The notes below the pieces were generated by a model. That model did no database searches. It was not told the DNA's origin and saw only the letters and a list, made by a program, of their open reading frames with translations. 64,000 nt of DNA. Origin: Dictyostelium discoideum (lineage: Eukaryota). The stretch lies in NCBI GenBank assembly GCA_000004695.1, contig CM000152.2, positions 5,440,001-5,504,000 of the forward strand. Reading direction: 5' to 3'. Positions 3,128 through 13,488 of this stretch are shown here, piece after piece. A program made the position numbers and the translations under genes. The stretch's first letter is position 1. Every line of letters starts with the position of its first letter.

Positions 3128-4214
3128 TTAATTTATTATCATATTATTATTATTATTGGTTATTGGGATATTATTTGTTATTGGAATATTATTTGAATTA
3201 TTTGGTTTTTTATCTCTAGATTTATTAATGTCATTATTTAATTTATCATACATTAATTCATCTTTTCTGGAAACGGAAGGTTTAATTTTAGAGAGAGCGA
3301 AAATGAAATCTTCCATTGTTACAGTATCTGGTTCAGTAGAGTTATTATCGAAACCACGACTAATAGCATGATTTGCTGCTTCTTTAACTAATAATGAAAG
3401 ATCAGCACCAGAGAATGAATGACAACGAAGATCGGTACCAACTTTAATTAGATCAACATCTTGGTGAATTGGAATCTTATGAGTGAGAGTTTTAAGGATT
3501 TCACATCTTTCCTCTGGTGATGGTAATGGAACATAAACCATTTTATCAAGACGACCTGGTCTACACATTGCAGCATCGATAATATCAGGTCTATTGGTTG
3601 CAGCAATTATGAATACTTCGGAACGTTTCTCTAAACCATCCATTTCTGTGAGTAATTGATTTACAACTCTTTCAGTAGCTTGGTTACCTCCACCATCACC
3701 ACCACCTCTTTTTGGGGCCAATGCGTCAAATTCATCGAAAAAGATAACACATGGTGATGATGCTGCTGCCCTTTGGAATACTTGACGTACGGCACGTTCA
3801 GATTCACCAACGTATTTATTCAAAAGTTCAGGTCCTTTAACTGATATGAAATTAGCTTGACATTCTGATGCGATTGCTTTAGCTAATAGGGTTTTACCAC
3901 AACCTGGTGGACCATACATTAAAACACCGGCAGGCGAATCAATACCCATATTTTTATATTTCTTTGGATATCTAATTGGTCTAAGAATTGAATTGGTTAA
4001 CTCCTCCCTTACACCACTTAATGCACCAACATCATCCCATGTAACATTTGGAATAGTTGCAAAACCTTCTCTTTTTGCTGCTGGTACAACTTTTTTCAAT
4101 GCTTTTTTAAAATCAATCATTTCAATATATAAACTATTCAATTTCTCTGGTTCTAATGGTTCTTTTGAAATTAATAATTCTGTTGATAAACCAATATTGT
4201 TTATATTAGTAGTA

Positions 4215-4245
<31 letters not shown>

Positions 4246-5264
4246 CACCATTTAAATTACTTGTAAATATTCTATTTACTGAATTGGTTGCTGCTTCTTT
4301 AACTAATAAATTAATATCTGCACCAACATAACCTGGTGTTAATGTTGCAATCTCTTCATAATCGAAATTATTCTCCAATCTCATCTTTGATGTAATAACC
4401 TTTAATATTTTACATCTTGCTGTTTGATCTGGTATACCTAAACAAATTTCCTTATCAAATCTACCACCAATTCTTAATGCTGTATCTAATGATTCTGGTC
4501 TATTTGTTGCACCAATTACAATTACATGTCCTTTTTTAAAATCATTTTTTTGTTGTTTATTATTATTATTTGATGCTGTAGTTGTTGTAGTTGCTTGTGA
4601 ATCAACTTCAATTATATCTTGTTGTTGTTGTTGTTGTTGCTCAGTTTGTTCATTTGGTTCATTTGTTGAATTGTTAGATGATAAATAATTTAAACTATCC
4701 ATACAAGTTAATAATTGTGATACAATTCTTCTTTCCATATCCTTTGAAGCAGATTCTCTTTTTGGAGCGATTGCATCAATTTCATCGATAAAAATGATAC
4801 ATGGTGCTTGTGCAATTGCATTGCTAAACAATGTTCTAACTCTAGCTTCAGATTCACCACTAACACCACTTGTAATTTCAGTTGCAGATATTGCAAACAA
4901 AGGTACTTTTAATTCACCTGCAATTGCTTTTGCTAATAAGGTTTTACCACATCCAGATGGACCATGTAATAAAATACCTCTTGGTGGTTCAACACCTAAA
5001 TGTGAGTAAATCTCTGGATGACAAATTGGATATTCAATATGTTCTCTAATATCTCTTAAACATGATTCAACACCACCAAGATTTGAAAAATTAATTGTTG
5101 GTATTAATCCATTACTTAAATTATTATCTTTATTATTACCATTATTATTATTATTATTTGAAAATTGGAATACATTATTACCATTTGAACTATTCTTTAA
5201 TTTCTTTTTTGGTTTTGAGTTTGGTGTATTTACATTATTTGTTGTGGTATTACTATTAATTGCA

Positions 5265-5295
<31 letters not shown>

Positions 5296-5837
5296 TTACA
5301 TTTGATGGTATATTTTCATCTCTATTTCTTTTTGCTGGTGTTGTAGTTGTTGTTGTTGGTGGTGTATTTTTAATATTTTGTTTGTATTGTGATGTTAATT
5401 GTTCATTTAAAATATTTGATGATGGTGGTGGTAGTGGTGGTGAAATTATCTCTACATCATCTCCATCTGATTCTTCCATTTTATTATCACCATCTTCGTT
5501 CTCTGATGATTCACAAGACGAAAGGTTTTTAATAATCTGGTTCATTGCTAAAAAAAAAATAAAAAAAAAACCAAAAAAAAAAAAAAATATTAATATTAAT
5601 AAACTATATAGTTTTAATAGTATATTTTGTTTTATTTTTTATTAATTATTTACCTTTTTCAACCAATTGTTTAAATCCTTTTAATGGTTTTCTGTTATAT
5701 TCCGGATAGACTTTTCTTAATTCATTTGTAATAAAATCATTGTTTAAAATATTTGACTCACTTAAATCTAATTTTTCAATTCTATCCATTAACTTTTCAT
5801 TTTCATTTTGACCAGAAGTATATTTTTTATTTACCAT
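3128..5837 (-). CDS. NVL/Rix7-like nuclear double-AAA ATPase; exons 5837..5654 and 5547..3128, intron 5653..5548
   Basis: There are two AAA modules, each with a Walker A motif (GPSGCGKTLLAKAIAGE and GPPGCGKTLLAKAIASE) and a Walker B/SRH region (IIFIDEIDA, ATNRPDIIDAAMCRPGRLD). A basic NLS-like KRNRDE...KPKKKLK lies in the N-terminal region. The upstream small ORF (MVNKKYTS...FKQLVEK) ends in G|GTAAAT. The intron ends TTTTTTTTAG|CAATG, which puts the small ORF in frame with the main ORF's ATG (phase 1: g+ca = Ala). The ELRKVYPEYNRKPLKGFKQLVEK segment resembles the conserved N-terminal nucleolar domain of NVL2. Confidence 0.8.
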
Positions 5838-6516
5838 TTTTTTATTTTTTTTATTTCTGTTGTATATTAAAAAAAAAAAATTAAAAATAAAAAACGATTA
5901 AAAAATTGCTCGTTTTTTGGATGAAAATTTATTTTATTTTTTTTTTTTTTTTTTTTTTTATTTTTTTTTTTTTTTTTATTTATTTTTTTTTTTTGATGGG
6001 AAGACTTCTAAATTATAAATAGCCATAAGAATTTTCTTTCTTTTTTTGGAATCGCAGTTGGGTTTTATTCACCTAAAAAATTATAATTTTTATAATTCAT
6101 CACCAAGAATGTTGTAATTATTATTTTTTTTATTATTTTTTTTTATTTTTTATTTTTATTTTTATTTTTATTTTTATTTTTATTTTTTTTTTGTGTTTGG
6201 TGGGTGTTGGTGTGCTGATTGGAAAAAAATTTTTAACTCATCTCATTTTGAAGATATGTTATTTTTAATTTTGGAGGGGTCAGTTAAAAAATATTTTCAT
6301 ACAATATGTTATGTTTTGTTAATTTGTAGCTGTGTGAGTGTGGCCTACAAAATAAAAAAAAAAAAATGTTTTTTTCCTATTAATTATTTTTTTCTTTTTT
6401 TTTTTTTTTTTTATCCAACATCAAAAAAAAAAAAAAAACAAATTAAAAGAACCCCTTATTGTATATCTATTTATACCATTAACGTACATAATAATTTTTA
6501 TCTTTAAAAATTTAAT

Positions 6517-6517
6517 T

Positions 6518-6589
<72 letters not shown>

Positions 6590-6590
6590 T
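6517..6590. repeat. (TTTA)n microsatellite in the intergenic region
   Basis: I see about 18 perfect TTTA units in the sequence. Confidence 0.9.
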
Positions 6591-6609
6591 TAATTATTTT
6601 TTTTTTTTG

Positions 6610-6649
<40 letters not shown>

Positions 6650-6690
6650 AATAATATTAATAATAATATTAATAATTAATATTAAAAATA

Positions 6691-8196
6691 ATGGATTGTG
6701 ATGAAATTAATTTTAAAAATGAAAATAAAAATTTAGAATTTTTATTAAATAAATATATAAATGAAATTTCAGAGCCAGCAAATTATCAACAAATTAAAAT
6801 GAGTATTTATAAATATTATGAACAAAATCATAAATCAAATTTAACTCATCAACAAAGTGAAGCGTTAAAACAAATAATCAGTGAAACTGGACCATCTGAA
6901 AGTATTTTATCAACATGTATGGATTTTAGAGTTAATTTCATAAATCAACCAAGTGAATCATGTGAAATATTTGATCCACTGAAAAAAAGAATTGCTAAAT
7001 TTCAACAATTAATAAAGGATAGCCTACAACAAACTCCAATCGAACCATTACTAAATGAATTAATTAATGGTTACAATTTATTCATTAGTCAATTGGTTGA
7101 AAGAGTAATTTATAAAGAAACTGATGGTAGTAGAAAATCATTAAGAATATTAGAATGTAATCCATTGATATTGGGTGAAGATTTAATTTATCGTGAAATT
7201 TCATTGGATAAAGCCTATGAAATTGCATCCTATAATCCAAAAGAGTATGAATATCAAAAAAAGAATGAAAATGGTACTAGTTGTGGAGGAGTTGTAAACT
7301 CTGTCTACTATAAAGTTGATAATGGTTCTCATTTACTTAGACCAGCAAAAGAGAATGCAGTTTTCCAATTTTATAAAACACTTTTCGAAACTGATAAATA
7401 TATTGTACCAACTCAACTATTGGTTATTAATCAGCTACCAATTCTTCCACCAGATATTAATGACTCTGAAGAAAGAAGAGAATTAATTAAATTAAAAGCA
7501 AGACACTGTTTAACGAATGCTCGTGATGTTTTTAATATTGATCCTCAATTAGAAAGAAGGATAGAAAATGCACTCCAACATCAAAGACCACTTTTCATTC
7601 AAGGTTCATTATTTATGGAGGGAAAAAGTTTATTTGATTTTCTATCAAATGGCTGTGGTGGTTGTAGTGGTTGTTGTGGTGATAGTGATAGTGGTAGTGG
7701 TAGTGGTTGTTGTGATAATAAAAAAAATTCAAGTCAAGTTGTAGTAGATGGTGCTTCCGATGATAGATTAGGTGGTTGTTCTAAAAAACCTATTGATTAT
7801 AGTGTTTTAGATAGAGAAAGTTTTAGTTCACACATTTTAGCAAGTTTATTATTAATGCCAACAGATTATAAAGCAGATAACTTAATTATTTCAAAGGATT
7901 CAAATATGATAGTTGGTATTGATAATGATGAATCGATGGAATGTGACGAAGTGAAAAAAGTTATCAGTAGTATTTCAAATCACGAAAGATATGATATCTG
8001 TTTAAAGAATATTTTATTTAGTTTACCATTAATGAATGAATATATTAATGAAAATATAATATCAAAATTTATGAAACATCATCCAAATATCTTTTTATTA
8101 GAATGGTTAATTAAACAATGTGAAAAAGAAATTATATATAATCAATTTATTAAAGCATCATTACCAATTAAAATTAATGATAACTCAACGACCACC

Positions 8197-8284
<88 letters not shown>

Positions 8285-11200
8285 TTTATAATGAAAAAAT
8301 AATATCAAATATAAATCAAGATTTGGGATTACCTTTTAAATTTTCACCAGGTTGGATAAAATTAATGCTTGGTAGATTTATAATGATTAAAAAAATATTA
8401 AAAGCTAGTGGTTGTAGAATGTCACATAAAGAATTATTAAAACAAATTTTACCTTTTACTGGGCATTATTATCAAGCATTGGAGAGATTAAATTCTGATC
8501 CACTTCAACAAATGGTTTCAATGTATGGTAGAGGGTTTGATTTTAAACAATTACTTTCAAATCATTTGGTTTCTGAAGATTTAGATAAAATATTTCAACA
8601 ATTGGAATCAAGAGAATTTAAAAAATGGTCACCACCAAATCAATCATTACAAGATACAATTAAAGAGTTAATACTTGAAACAAATTATGGTACTGATTCA
8701 TTCCCTTCAAATCAATATTTAATTAAATGGTTAGAGATTCTATTGATTAGGTTAAATTCTGGAATTGGATTTGGAACTAATGATAAGGAATTAAATTTTA
8801 AATATTTTGAATTACATGATTCATGGTATAAAAACAAGGAGAAAATATTTATTATCTTAATTAAAGAGGGTGCATCTGAAATTTTACTAAGAGATTTTGC
8901 AAAGATTGTTCATTTAACAATTGATGAAATTAATCAAATTAGAGATGAAGAGGTTGGTTCAATAGTTCATATTGCAATTCATTCAAATAATGCCAATATT
9001 TTATCACAATTAAAAGTTTTACAGTGTATGGGAGTTGATATCGAAGAATCTAATAGTAGTTGGTGTACACCATTAGGTTTAAGTGTACATAATAAAAATT
9101 TTGAATTATTTAAATTACTAATTGATATGGGTGCTGGTGCATTAACAAATCCTCAAAAAATCAATGACTATTATAAATCTTTATCATTGGAAAGTAGACA
9201 AGAGTTACGTCCATACCTTTCAAAGTTATCTTATGTAAATCCAAAAATAATTTGGAAGATTTCATTAGACCATATTTTCCCTTTAGTTAGTGGTTATTCA
9301 GGTCCAGCAACAGGTAATAAAGTTTTAAAAACTACATCAGAAGGTGAAAGAGTAATCTCAATTGAACATTGGCGTCAATTGTTCCATCATGATGGTTCGC
9401 CAATAAAATCAAATCCTCATGGAGCAAGATCTGTACCATTTGTAAAGAGTAAAGGATTTAGAATTTATTGTAAATTTGAACCACAATTTCCAGGTACAGA
9501 ATTAGCTGTTTCAAGATTATCAGAATTACTTTTTGGTTATTTATCACCATATAGTGAACTTGGATCAATAAATAATGTACCAGTTTTATTAACACAAGGG
9601 ATTGTTGGAGACCCATTGGTTGATATACTTTCAAAAAATTCAGAAATTTTAAATCATTTAGATCCATCAAATTTATCAAAAATTTTAGTATCTGCAATGT
9701 TATTTAATCCAGGTGATGGTAATTTAGGAAATTATATAGTTTCGCCATGTTTAAATGATACAATTGATTCTAATAATAATAATAACAATAATAATAGTGA
9801 AAATAATAATAATAATACCAAACAAATGTATAGATTAATTGCAATTGATCAAGATCAAAGTTTTATGCCATCATTTTCAAAGGATTTAGGATCAAATAAA
9901 TTATCATTACAGGTTGAAACCGTTTTGTTTCTTTTTAAACAAATGAATGATCCAGTTCACCAAGATGTAAAAGATTGTATACTTGAGAAAAATTTAGATT
10001 TAGTTTTAAATAATTGGTTAAATAATTTGAAATTTCATCATCAAGCATCAATTAATCATTTTAATAAAATTGGTGAAAGATTAAAGGATAAACAACAACA
10101 ACAAATGGAGAAAAAGACAATTATTGGTATATCATTTGCTCCTGGTATTATTCAACAACTATTTTCAAAGTTAACAAGATTACAAAATGAATTTAAAAAG
10201 AATAGAAAGAAACCAATAACTCATATTGAACTTTTAGAGATTTTGGAACCAATGATTGCAATTCGTTATAAACCATTTTTAAATGAATTCAATAATGGTC
10301 CAGAGTTTTTAATAGAAAAGTATAGAAAATTAAAAATTTCAAGTTCTCTTGAGACTTCTAATGGTGGTTATGGTAGTATTTCATCTTTGAGTAGTTCAAT
10401 CCATTCAAATTCATTCGTTTTAGAGTCTAGAGAAATTCCAAATATAAGTGAAATTCAATCATCTTTAAGATCTGGTAAATTTGGACCTGATAGAGCTATT
10501 GAAGAATTAGATATTATAAAGAAACAACAATCTACTATAAATCAAATTTTATCAGATTTGGGTCAATTAAATCATTTTATTGATGGTAGATCTTTATCTC
10601 AACCAAATTTAATCGAATCACTACAACAACCAAATTCATTAACAAATTCAGGTTCAAGAACAATAAATGCTCAAGGTATACATACAAATGGAAGTTTAGG
10701 TAGTAGTGTTGGTAATAAATTTAGTAAATTATTTGGTATGGGTAGTAAACAACCACCATCATATCAAATACCACAACCCACTACACCACCAATGGAAAAG
10801 AGAAAGGATAATTTAACCGATTGTTTATTAGAACAATTGTTAAAAGAAGTTAATTTCAAAAAATTAACACCACCTCAAGAAAAGTATTTATTGGATTTTT
10901 TGAAAACAAGTAAAGAACTTAGATTTGTATCATTAAAGGGTGCGTCAACAATAAAATATCAATTTTTTAAATCATTTATAATTAGAGCGATCGTTCGTAT
11001 GGATTTATCAGATAGTAGTATTGATTCAGTTTCACAAGTTGGTTTATTAGGAACTACTTCCTCACCTATAGTAATGCACTCATTAACTAGACTTCGTCTT
11101 GATAGATGTTCATGTTTATACATGATAAAACTAAATGCTGATGCATTAAAAGAATTAAGTTGTACTGATTGTCCAATGTTAAAAATCATTGAATTAAATA

Positions 11201-13488
11201 CACCAAATTTAGAGATTATAAATTTAGAAAATGGTTCAATCATTGATTCAAAATTTTGGGATAATCTAACTAAACAAACAAATCTTATAAAATTAAATAT
11301 ATCAAATTGTAAAACAGTTTCAAGAGAATTAACATTCACTTTTCCAAATCTATTAGAATTGATTGCAAATAAAATATCAACATTAGATAAAGTTATATTA
11401 CAATTACCAGTAGCATTATCAATTCATTTTGAAAGTTGTATAAATTTAACATCAATATCTGGTTTAACACCATCATTAAAATTATTAAATTTAAATCAAT
11501 CAATAAGTTTAATTTCAAATAATGAAAATAATAATGAAAATATTATTAATAATAGTAATAATAATAATAATAATAATAATAGTAATAATAATAGTAATAA
11601 CAATAGTATATCAACAACACCAATTAATGTTTCAAGTAATTCATTAATATCAAGTCAATCAAATTTAAATATTACATATTCATCAACATTTAAAGTAAAT
11701 GTATGTGGTGTTGATAAACATATTCAAAACTTTAGAAAAATTATAAATTCTTCTTCAAAAATTTCAACAAATTATAAAGTTGATAATATTAGAAATCAAG
11801 AATATGATTTTCAATTTTGGTATTTAGCTGAACAATGTGATAGTTCAACAACTCCACTATATCTTAAAAGCTCAAATATATTATTGTTATTATTTGATTT
11901 TTCATTAGATATTGATGGTAATGAATTTAATGAAACATTAATAATTTTCCAAAATTATATTGAAGCATGTAAATCAAATTCAATTAAACAAAGATTTATT
12001 TTATTTGGTTATGGTTATCCACCAGATTCTAAATCACTTGATTTGGTAAAACAATTTAAAGAATTAAATCAAATTGAAACCTTTGTCTATATAGCTCAAA
12101 TACTTGAAAAGCATCAACTAGAATATGTTAGAGATAGTTTATTCTCAAATTTAAGAAATGATCAATTAGAGATTTTAAAGGTTAATCATTTATATAATTT
12201 TAAAAAAAATATAGAAAAACAAGCTTTACAAGTTGTTGCAAAGAAAATACTTACCAAAGATGTATTGGTAATTGATTTATTGGATGAACTTGAAGGAATT
12301 GATTTCTCTGATATAGTATCGGATCATTTTCAAGATCATTTAGTATCAATTAATGAAATCTTTGATTTATTATACCAATTGAATAAATCATTAATTGAAA
12401 ATCATCAACAAAAAGAAGAATATGCAAAATCTATTAAAAAAGATTTCTTTAAAGTGAAAATCATTCAAAAACAACAAACTGATATGCTATCGAAATTAGA
12501 TCGTTACAAAGAAACCATTAATATTACAATGATTTTTAAAAATCTAAAAAGACTCTATTATATTGCATTAATTAAAAATATTGGTAAAGTGATTCAAACA
12601 CTTGCTCCAATTTTTTCAGATTATAAAATGGAAACTTATCAAAAGAAATACTTTGAAGATTATGAAGCTATAAACTTTTCATTCAAATCTGAATCATATC
12701 TATATAGTAGTTCCAATTCAATTAATATTACACTTTGTAGAGTTATTTGTTCAGGTTTTAATCATGCTTTTAGATGGTTTTTAGTGAAATATCCTCAACT
12801 ATTTGATGAGGCAACTTTAAATTCAAATAATTTAAACAATAGTAGTGTTTTAAGAACTTCTAGTAGTTTAGCTTTAAAAAATGAAGATAGTAGTAGTATA
12901 GAATTTCCTTATGAAAAAACACCTCTATCATTTGCTATTGATTATAAATGTTTAGAAATAATTCAATGGTTAGTTAATAATGTTATTTTATCATCAAAAT
13001 TATTAAATATTGCATTGATAAGATCAATTATGGTTGGTAATTTAGAATTGGTTACATTTTTCATTGAAAATGGTTCAGATGTTAATTGTAGTATTTCAAG
13101 TTTAGAAATGTCACCTATTCAATATGCTGCAAAGTTTAATCAAATTGAAATTGTTAAATATTTATTAACATTGGAGGGAAATAAAAAAGTAAACATTGAA
13201 AAAAAGAATAGACTAGGTTGGTCAGCAATTCATTTCGCTTCAAGAAATCAAAATCAACAAATTGTAGATTCATTATTATCAACTTCAAATGATAAATCTT
13301 TAATTAATACTCCAACAAATATAGGTGAAACTCCACTTTATTTAGCAGTAACAAAATCAATATCAATCAACCATGACTTTTGTAATTATTTAATTAATAA
13401 TTATAAACCAATTACAAAATGTCATATTGATGGTATTGTTGAAGAAATCGATATAGTTTCAAATTATTTAAATAAAATTAATACTTAA
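6691..13488 (+). CDS. Very large (2265 aa) multidomain protein: Cys/Gly-rich segment, ankyrin repeats (middle and C-terminal), a PI3/4-kinase-like degenerate segment, an LRR-like region, a degenerate Roc/Ras-like segment
   Basis: This is a single uninterrupted ORF with an ATG start and AT-rich flanks. Ankyrin repeats are visible (e.g. GWSAIHFASRNQNQQIVDSLLS...GETPLYLAV; CTPLGLSVHNKNFELFKLLIDMGAG). A CGGCSGCCGDSDSGSGSGCC cluster is present. Segment 1 is FRIYCKFEP...NPGDGNLGNYIV...RLIAIDQDQSF. Segment 2 is VNVCGVDKH...FQFWYLAEQ...LLLLFDFS. There are poly-N tracts. Confidence 0.8.

Follow-up and report, generated by a model that had tools for sequence, protein, structure and literature searches.

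The gene analysed here, one of those in a 64-kb window of Dictyostelium discoideum DNA (the whole stretch that was examined), appears to encode a giant protein in which two kinase-like domains, arranged in tandem and resembling active type II PI 4-kinases (PI4KII), are joined to a Rab/Roc-like pseudoGTPase. To this explanation as a whole, which draws on predicted structures and conserved motifs, we assign an even chance. The gene product would be a large cytosolic multidomain protein in which the first kinase-like domain (A) leads into a helical segment, ankyrin repeats, the second kinase-like domain (B) and leucine-rich repeats (LRR), in that order. Both domains keep the residues for ATP/Mg binding and phosphate transfer and would therefore be functional phosphotransferases that use ATP, not inert scaffolds. 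The favoured substrate would be a membrane phosphoinositide, as in PI4KII, with a protein, as in AFK, CotH or Fam20, a close second. The pseudoGTPase, together with the helical region and the second ankyrin block that follow it, might be a module locked in one state that serves interaction or regulation, and the ankyrin and LRR repeats may bring in partners or direct the protein to membranes.

The gene and its family

The complete open reading frame (6691..13488; all features described here lie on the + strand) runs for 2265 uninterrupted codons from an ATG at 6691 to a stop at 13486-13488, in agreement with the single-exon, 2265-aa protein read by the initial annotation, and all the strings quoted there were found in the protein at the residues given. 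The surrounding DNA is AT-rich and of the Dictyostelium type, with the usual A/T runs in the upstream intergenic region. The D. firmibasis orthologue (P0001) is colinear and 84% identical over residues 130-1300, the part searched, and segment-by-segment alignment extends the homology through the C-terminal ankyrin repeats; the D. purpureum orthologue (P0002), also colinear, is 53% identical. Conservation against the latter is highest in the kinase cores (65% and 57%), compared with 40-49% in most other structured segments and 56% in the 50-residue linker before domain B. These alignments mark it as a genuine gene that evolves under constraint. A profile search found no paralogue elsewhere in the window.

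An exhaustive HMMER search yielded 594 matches, or about 600 representatives at 50% clustering, and the shared core, kinase A - ankyrin - kinase B - LRR, defines an unannotated family of approximately 600 proteins. Pfam and NCBIfam have no model for it, the sources checked give it no functional name, and we found no description of it in the literature. A word-index protein search with residues 850-1260 and 1660-2050 returned no matches, even though the 84% identical orthologue was in the collection, and we take this empty result as a limit of such searches with an N-rich query, not as a sign of missing homologues. Family members are present in dictyostelids, Chlamydiae, Dependentiae and Paracaedibacteraceae. 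A degenerate DNA pattern encoding NPEDGKPDNY served to search for bacterial loci, and in MAGs of Chlamydiae, Dependentiae and Paracaedibacteraceae a single ORF carries the kinase A/B tandem. The core of the bacterial members carries swappable C-terminal modules, for example, patatin, Ulp1-like protease or Sel1, and the C-terminal half with the Rab-like pseudoGTPase is dictyostelid-specific. Several paralogues are found per genome in Dictyostelium. No Legionella member was seen among the relatives found, and a locust protein (P0103) was rejected as a member, its match being confined to ankyrin repeats.

It is conceivable, at somewhat less than an even chance, that these proteins constitute an undescribed family of active tandem PI4KII-like kinases, shared by amoebae and intracellular bacteria presumably through inter-domain gene transfer, and acting as phosphoinositide or protein kinases of host-symbiont membranes. 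If so, this would be a new class of such kinases at the host-symbiont membrane interface. The occurrence of the family both in a genetically tractable amoeba and in obligate intracellular bacteria of protists opens its function to direct tests in Dictyostelium and suggests a link to the control of phosphoinositides or trafficking in intracellular symbiosis or infection.

Two kinase-like domains and their possible chemistry

Domain B (9346..10335, residues ~886-1215) contains K928 in strand beta3 (within FRIYCKFEP, residues 923-931), E937 in helix alphaC, D1009 and N1014 in the catalytic loop NPGDGNLGNYIV (residues 1006-1017, reading D1009-G-N-L-G-N1014), and D1053 (within IAIDQDQSF, residues 1050-1058). 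Throughout the family these positions are conserved at 95% or more: the Lys in 128/133 sequences, the Asp and Asn of the loop in 126/133 and 127/133, and the activation-loop Asp in 126/133. The AF2 model of the domain (pLDDT 84, pTM 0.86) predicts the two lobes of a kinase, with PI4KII alpha as the closest fold. K928 lies within a beta strand and E937 in the following helix, helix 123-136 precedes D1009/N1014, and strand 178-182 leads directly to D1053 (model numbering for helix and strand). A Foldseek search with this model returned kinase-fold proteins only, CtkA ranking first and AFK, CotH and Fam20 likewise being among the top structural neighbours. In favour of the PI4KII-like fold, CtkA, Fam20 and AFK have also been reported as neighbours of PI4KII alpha (PMC3974213). 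An Asn-rich insert (9745..9828, residues 1019-1046), which includes a (TAA)n repeat at 9771-9817 and has low pLDDT at model residues 151-177, separates the catalytic-loop strand from the strand preceding the activation-loop Asp. It occupies the position of insertion I3 (318-340) of PI4KII alpha, which has been placed between beta9 and beta10 (PMC3974213).

The initial annotation recognized one kinase-like segment, corresponding to domain B, and its kinase-like nature holds; the paralogous domain A (7138..8610, residues ~150-640) had been missed. The two domains are linked by an hhalign match with 99.9% probability (E 1.3e-35) and by cross-matches in local phmmer. In domain A, the motif set is intact, comprising K208, E221, D392-x4-N397 (PTDYKADNLII) and D411 (GIDNDES), and the same residues recur in the family in 34/34 (Lys), 33/34 (Glu), 32/34 (Asp), 31/34 (Asn) and 32/34 (activation-loop Asp) sequences. 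The domain is broken up by two non-conserved inserts and by a poly-Asn tract (8182..8292, residues 498-534) that is (AAT)n-encoded, of low complexity and not conserved; past this tract, the C-terminal helical subdomain picks up again, with the domain-B profile matching residues 535-612.

Within the C-lobe of domain A lies the Cys/Gly cluster CGGCSGCCGDSDSGSGSGCC (7654..7713, residues 322-341), which the initial annotation correctly reported without recognizing it as a non-conserved repeat insert. Its coding DNA is a degenerate (GTGGTA)n / NGT microsatellite at 7655-7713 (TRF period 6, 8.8 copies at 7655-7707), the corresponding stretch has one Cys in the D. firmibasis orthologue and none in that of D. 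purpureum, and identity drops to 21% in the insert versus about 90% in its flanks. By these properties, the cluster is a species-specific microsatellite insert. A conserved metal-binding site and a conserved CCPCC-like palmitoylation site were both considered and rejected, since a microsatellite encodes the cluster and the orthologues lack it; incidental S-acylation may occur in D. discoideum.

Type I/III PI3K and PI4K enzymes carry the signatures GDRHxxN and HIDFG. Those of the type II enzyme PI4K2A, checked in PDB 4hnd, are NTDRGNDNWLI ... AIDNGLAFP, and the family consensus for domain B, Y.K..PE.PG.E.AV ... NPEDGKPDNYI ... IDNDHAFVP, aligns with PI4K2A with the motifs in the same register (hhalign, E 0.013). 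The ATP-binding Lys of PI4KII alpha is K152, and the K152A mutant is inactive (PMC3974213); K928 in domain B and K208 in domain A match this residue. The Asp...Asn pair of DRGNDN (308-313) has its counterparts in DYKADN of domain A and DGNLGN of domain B, and D346 of AIDNG corresponds to D411 (GID411NDES) and D1053 (IAID1053QDQSF), respectively. The description of the kinase segment as inactivated came from setting its motifs against the type III signatures, whereas the type II signatures fit the Asp/Asn pair and the subsequent Asp; with Lys, Glu, Asp, Asn and Asp all kept, and hardly varying among over 130 relatives, that description is not supported. Neither a DRHxxN loop, nor a DFG activation loop, nor the helical PIK accessory domain of the type I/III enzymes was found. 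Pfam gave no match to PF00454 or any other kinase family at E<=1, either for the whole protein or for 31 domain-B sequences; the family profile had no PI-kinase match in PDB; and sequence searches of Pfam, NCBIfam and PDB with the protein itself detected neither a kinase nor a GTPase. The PI4KII-like assignment, therefore, rests on predicted structure and motif alignment.

Of the alternatives, the one that fares best, although still unlikely, is that both domains are active protein kinases like AFK, CotH, CtkA and Fam20, rather than lipid kinases, with substrates recruited via the ankyrin and LRR repeats. In addition to the prominence of these four among the structural neighbours, this possibility draws on the family loop DGKPDN, which, read as sequence, resembles DLKPEN of Ser/Thr protein kinases. 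It also draws on PI4KII alpha itself, whose closest analogues are protein kinases (PMC3974213). The same reading is favoured by the absence of the CCPCC insertion, since a search of the kinase-like domains revealed no conserved Cys motif of this kind. In PI4KII enzymes, this palmitoylated, Cys-rich insertion of the N-lobe anchors the enzyme to membranes.

The proposal of the initial annotation, a double pseudo-enzyme scaffold in which the kinase-like and G-like modules are all dead and function only via partner binding, comes next and is also improbable. The G-like half of this proposal stands, the domain clearly being devoid of G1, G3 and G4, and the protein is indeed rich in interaction repeats. 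Moreover, the catalytic loop of domain B deviates from that of the family, with DGNLGN in place of DGKPDN; this replacement of the Lys and the second Asp, found in the dictyostelid subgroup, might alter or reduce catalysis. Non-catalytic family members do occur, as indicated by the D. purpureum paralogue P0005, which, as read from the sequences, has lost Lys, Asn or Asp in both kinase domains. The kinase half, however, is not supported: neither domain lacks any residue of the Lys/Glu/Asp/Asn/Asp set, domain A has DYKADN/IDND in full, no part of the protein is more conserved than the kinase cores, and retention of these residues from bacteria to amoebae is the usual signature of catalysis. That the kinase fold has been diverted to other nucleotide-dependent chemistry, AMPylation as in SelO or glutamylation as in SidJ, seems highly improbable.

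The G-like domain and the repeats

The Rab/Roc-like pseudoGTPase domain (11683..12090, residues ~1665-1800) was initially described as having the layout of a G-domain with the key residues replaced, and our results bear this out. Profile comparison matches it best to Rabs (Rab30, E 1.1e-5; the relative P0096 against Rab2A, E 6.5e-6), and by this measure the segment ~1650-1800 is homologous to Ras-superfamily G-domains but has none of the motifs that bind the nucleotide. The P-loop (G1) is shortened to CGVDKH (in VNVCGVDKH, residues 1669-1677), DxxG (G3) is changed to YLAE (in FQFWYLAEQ, residues 1707-1715, as WYLAEQ), and NKxD (G4) to GYGY (FGYGYPPD); a hydrophobic stretch, LLLLFDFS, spans residues 1731-1738. 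P0096 and the orthologues of D. firmibasis and D. purpureum have lost G1, G3 and G4 in the same way, and we therefore regard the domain as a pseudoGTPase, probably incapable of binding or hydrolysing GTP. The helical region that follows (12091..12855, residues ~1801-2055), modelled as low-confidence helices, is conserved in the dictyostelid orthologues and P0096, and no known domain, COR or any other in Pfam, was detected in it.

The repeats reported initially are all confirmed above the Pfam thresholds. The middle ankyrin repeats (8908..9195, residues ~740-835) lie between the two kinase-like domains (Ank_4, E 5.5e-5, 23.8 bits vs cutoff 22.7, residues ~740-816), a position kept in the family, with Ank matches in homologues P0004, P0018, P0024 and P0035. 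The LRR region (10876..11508, residues ~1396-1606), of the Cys-containing F-box/plant type, matches PF23622 (E 1.9e-6, 28.0 bits vs cutoff 26.9, residues ~1464-1558); it belongs to the conserved family core, and some 60 of the 150 relatives listed have a homologous region. The C-terminal ankyrin repeats (12856..13425, residues ~2056-2245) give the strongest matches (Ank_2, E 3.8e-24, 85.5 bits; Ank_4, 6.4e-20), along with ankyrin and DARPin matches in PDB.

Comparison with known systems

The branch of the kinase superfamily formed by type II PI 4-kinases and their atypical relatives is small and has few members; it would now gain a large family in which the kinase domains stand, unusually, in tandem and have kept their catalytic motifs. 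The distance from human PI4K2A (4HND/4PLA) is considerable: structure-based identity is only 13-14%, there is neither a PF00454 match nor the CCPCC insertion, and, unlike in the human enzyme, the kinase domain is duplicated in tandem within a protein of about 2000 aa that also contains ankyrin, LRR and other modules. Actin-fragmin kinase of Physarum (1CJA), CotH, CtkA and Fam20, all atypical protein kinases, belong to the same structural cluster. The Legionella effector MavQ (7M7A), a bacterial phosphoinositide kinase, is structurally much more distant, and has neither the tandem duplication nor the ankyrin-kinase-LRR core.

The G-like domain shares with Rab GTPases the common G-domain topology, the profile similarity covering beta3, switch II, beta4, alpha3 and beta5; unlike Rabs, it has YLAEQ in place of DxxGQ, forms part of a giant protein, and is not followed by a C-terminal prenylation motif. 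The resemblance to Roco proteins (LRRK2, Dictyostelium Roco/GbpC) lies in the architecture: ankyrin repeats and kinase domains share a very large protein of many domains, and the LRR (1464-1558) is directly upstream of a Ras-like G domain (1665-1800). However, the protein has no match to Roc (PF08477) at E<=10 and does not qualify as a GTP-binding Roc; in P0096, Roc is the best Pfam G-domain model but remains sub-threshold, at 19.6 bits vs cutoff 27; and Pfam detects no COR domain in the protein, P0001, P0002 or P0096. With no COR and no Roc matches, Roco membership is rejected. The Roco/DAPK relationship suggested at the outset is likewise unsupported, the kinase domains being PI4KII-like rather than TKL and located N-terminal of a G domain that is devoid of GTP-binding motifs and has its best match in Rabs. 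The degenerate Rab-like domain would be a clear example of a pseudoGTPase fused to kinases, in an arrangement unlike that of Roco proteins and LRRK2.

Two kinase-like domains of a giant ankyrin-repeat protein

When the whole giant protein is searched, Pfam recovers only ankyrin repeats, the NCBIfam scan gives no match, and PDB sequence matches are limited to ankyrin and DARPin chains. The protein contains two kinase-like domains, A (residues ~150-640) and B (residues ~886-1215), which, judged by profile-profile comparison of their alignments (probability 99.9%, E 1.3e-35), are paralogous copies of one domain; in local phmmer comparisons, segments A (130-490) and B (870-1260) also cross-match each other's positions in many relatives. 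Two inserts distinguish domain A from B, an additional one past the N-lobe and another holding a Cys/Gly cluster; the C-terminal helical part of A resumes beyond a poly-Asn tract, with the B profile matching residues 535-612.

The initial annotation had noted a PI3K/PI4K-like segment in domain B, and structure prediction bears it out as a kinase fold: the AlphaFold2 model of residues 870-1260, built from an alignment of 31 sequences, has a mean pLDDT of 84.1 and a pTM of 0.86. Next-placed neighbours in a fold search with this model include actin-fragmin kinase (11.9), CotH (11.9), Vps34 (11.8) and PI3K-alpha (11.6), followed by PIKKs, PI4KIII-beta, Fam20, CtkA, MavQ (9.6) and HipA; Foldseek gives weak matches only (best E 6e-4), all with the kinase fold and CtkA first. 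CtkA, Fam20 and AFK have been reported as structural neighbours of PI4KII alpha (PMC3974213).

The same annotation took the kinase to be apparently inactivated, having measured it against the type III signatures GDRHxxN and HIDFG, whereas the fitting yardstick is type II. PI4K2A (PDB chain 4hnd_A) reads ...LDYIIRNTDRGNDNWLIKY...VIKVAAIDNGLAFPLKHP..., the domain B family consensus reads Y.K..PE.PG.E.AV ... AMLINPEDGKPDNYI ... YRLI.IDNDHAFVP, and hhalign places the two in the same motif register (E 0.013, over a 97-residue fragment). In PI4KII alpha, the catalytic loop spans residues 308-315, the activation loop covers 344-364, and the K152A mutant is inactive (PMC3974213). At the motif positions, the window protein has K928, E937, D1009, N1014 and D1053 in domain B, and K208, E221, D392, N397 and D411 in domain A. 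In the AlphaFold2 model, K928 lies in a beta strand and E937 in the helix right after it, D1009/N1014 follow a long helix (123-136), and a strand (178-182) immediately precedes D1053, a predicted placing that corresponds to the canonical arrangement. Across relatives, K, E, D, N and D are kept in 128, 123, 126, 127 and 126 of 133 sequences for domain B, and in 34, 33, 32, 31 and 32 of 34 for domain A. The two kinase cores are, moreover, the parts best conserved relative to the D. purpureum orthologue (65% and 57%; most other structured segments reach 40-49%, and the short 50-residue linker before domain B 56%).

With the catalytic positions near-invariant and the kinase cores best conserved, inactivation is unsupported. 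From these motifs, both domains are predicted to be active phosphotransferases, and at least one of them is quite probably active. A phosphoinositide is a tentative candidate for the substrate, and a protein is a rather doubtful one. That the giant protein is a pure pseudo-enzyme scaffold, as first proposed, seems improbable. As a caveat, changes at these motifs do occur in the family: the dictyostelid subgroup has DGNLGN in place of DGKPDN in domain B, and P0005, a D. purpureum paralogue, has lost several catalytic residues in both domains, as read off the sequences (in B, R stands for K and INNE for IDND; in A, DYGPDS stands for DYKADN). Pseudokinase members thus appear to arise within the tandem-kinase family.

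Repeats, inserts and the G-like domain

All sequence strings quoted in the initial annotation occur where it placed them, and the middle and C-terminal ankyrin repeats and LRR-like region that it described are recovered by Pfam, the middle ankyrin block (residues ~740-816) as Ank_4 (23.8 bits) and the LRR (residues 1464-1558) as PF23622 (28.0 bits), both just over the curated cutoffs in sub-segment scans. We infer that these ANK and LRR modules recruit partners. The Cys/Gly cluster is indeed present, in a domain A insert that lies past the hinge region and ahead of the catalytic-loop helix, but does not hold up as a conserved functional site: its coding DNA is a degenerate (GTGGTA)n repeat (7655-7713), and neither the D. 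firmibasis and D. purpureum orthologues nor any other relative examined has it. It is a lineage-specific simple-sequence expansion, like the poly-Asn tracts encoded by in-frame (AAT)n/(TAA)n repeats (8197-8304, 9771-9817 and 11518-11605), all of which lie in inserts or linkers that lack conservation in orthologues. The Asn-rich insert of domain B (residues 1019-1046) occupies the same place as I3, a disordered insertion of PI4KII alpha (PMC3974213).

The proposed G-domain layout with key residues replaced is upheld. The model of residues 1660-2062, aligned with four relatives, is modest (pLDDT 58 overall, 60-87 over the first 165 residues), and its elements follow the small GTPase order, beta1-alpha1-beta2-beta3-alpha2-beta4-alpha3-beta5-alpha4-beta6-alpha5. 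The five-sequence profile matches Rab30 (E 1.1e-5); virtually all 60 matches listed belong to the Rab family of GTPases, with the similarity spanning beta3, switch II, beta4, alpha3 and beta5. P0096, a metagenomic relative, matches both the profile of four dictyostelid G-like domains, the window protein's included (E 3e-14), and Rab2A (E 6.5e-6), and reads FQFWELPEHESFRSIARSYYRGA at the position of a 21-residue Rab stretch; its best Pfam model is Roc, sub-threshold at 19.6 bits against a cutoff of 27. The window protein has a P-loop cut down to CGVDKH, YLAEQ in place of DxxGQ and GYGY in place of NKxD, losses common to all orthologues; the domain is a Rab/Roc-like pseudoGTPase. The 250 residues that follow it are modeled as low-confidence helices. 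Among the 150 matches listed, only the dictyostelid proteins P0001 (the D. firmibasis orthologue), P0002 (the D. purpureum orthologue) and P0005, along with P0096, share the stretch made up of the G-like domain, the helical region and the C-terminal ankyrin repeats. This pseudoGTPase, helical and ANK tail would be a dictyostelid-specific regulatory or targeting module.

The gene and its family in amoebae and bacteria

The giant protein is encoded by an uninterrupted reading frame of 2265 codons (6691-13488, plus strand) in a window of AT-rich, Dictyostelium-type composition (GC 14-32%). A long A-run precedes the start ATG, and before that lies a typical A/T-rich intergenic region, with a long (TTTA)n microsatellite (6516-6590) and poly-T and poly-A stretches of great length (5900-6000, 6590-6650). 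Its neighbour upstream, encoded on the opposite strand, is an 805-aa ORF (3128-5545, minus) with two AAA ATPase domains and AAA-lid and Vps4_C-like matches, a Cdc48/NVL-type double-AAA protein; between the two, a 63-aa ORF (5646-5837, minus; MVNKKYTSGQNENEKLMDRIEKLDL...) may be a small gene or exon. A 485-aa cytochrome P450 gene (13620-15077, minus; PF00067, E 2e-83) converges on the 3' end, leaving only ~130 bp to the stop codon. The gene is real and under constraint. Its nearest relative comes from D. firmibasis (KAK5584595; 84% identity, with residues 130-1300 searched), homology reaches the C-terminal ankyrin repeats in segment-by-segment alignment, and the D. purpureum orthologue is 53% identical. 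Such identities make D. discoideum, or a species very near it, the most likely source of the window.

An exhaustive HMMER search with residues 130-1300 yielded, at E<=1e-3, 594 cluster representatives, of which 94 have E-values below 1e-30. Several Dictyostelium species and MAGs are their sources, those with names are called 'hypothetical protein' or 'ankyrin repeat protein', and no Pfam domain covers the region of interest in the relatives examined. Local phmmer comparison of the 150 matches listed, of the 594, delimits a conserved core from residue ~150 to ~1610, outside which relatives carry C- or N-terminal Sel1 repeats, patatin phospholipase, canonical LRRs or a Ulp1/RickCE-like protease. 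Among metagenomic relatives, the kinase A-ANK-kinase B core is fused to the Ulp1/RickCE-like protease in P0018 and joined to a patatin phospholipase and RanGAP-type LRRs in P0024, with long Sel1 arrays in P0004 and P0018; such varied fusions are an effector-like modularity.

A degenerate DNA pattern for NPEDGKPDNY, run against a species-representative bacterial genome set, hit 12 loci, all in MAGs of Paracaedibacteraceae, other Alphaproteobacteria, Dependentiae and Chlamydiae, lineages known as obligate intracellular associates of protists. The Paracaedibacteraceae MAG JAIBEV01 holds at least five separate tandem-kinase gene copies (L001, L003, L004, L011, L012), and L003 itself has two adjacent copies. 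All bacterial loci of sufficient length encode a single ORF of 1000-1955 aa with A and then, ~600 residues on, B, which argues for an A/B duplication older than the split between the family's bacterial and amoebal members. At least six paralogues occur in D. purpureum, and some of them lie side by side on a contig; since P0005 and P0002 bear consecutive accessions (EGC40275 and EGC40276) on one contig, they are probably adjacent and arose by tandem duplication.

Comparison with known systems

The LRR directly upstream of the G domain is reminiscent of Roco proteins, which are defined by Roc-COR. No COR domain was detected in the giant protein or its relatives, and Roco membership is rejected; the Roco/DAPK-type relation initially suggested is not supported. 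It is plausible, if speculative, that the protein takes part in endomembrane or phosphoinositide control, given its likeness to PI4KII, its Rab-like module and the connection to intracellular bacteria. The sources checked hold no Pfam or NCBIfam model or functional name for the family, and we found no description of it in the literature. The kinase-like domain falls in a known fold class; what is new is the tandem architecture, together with its joining to a pseudoGTPase.
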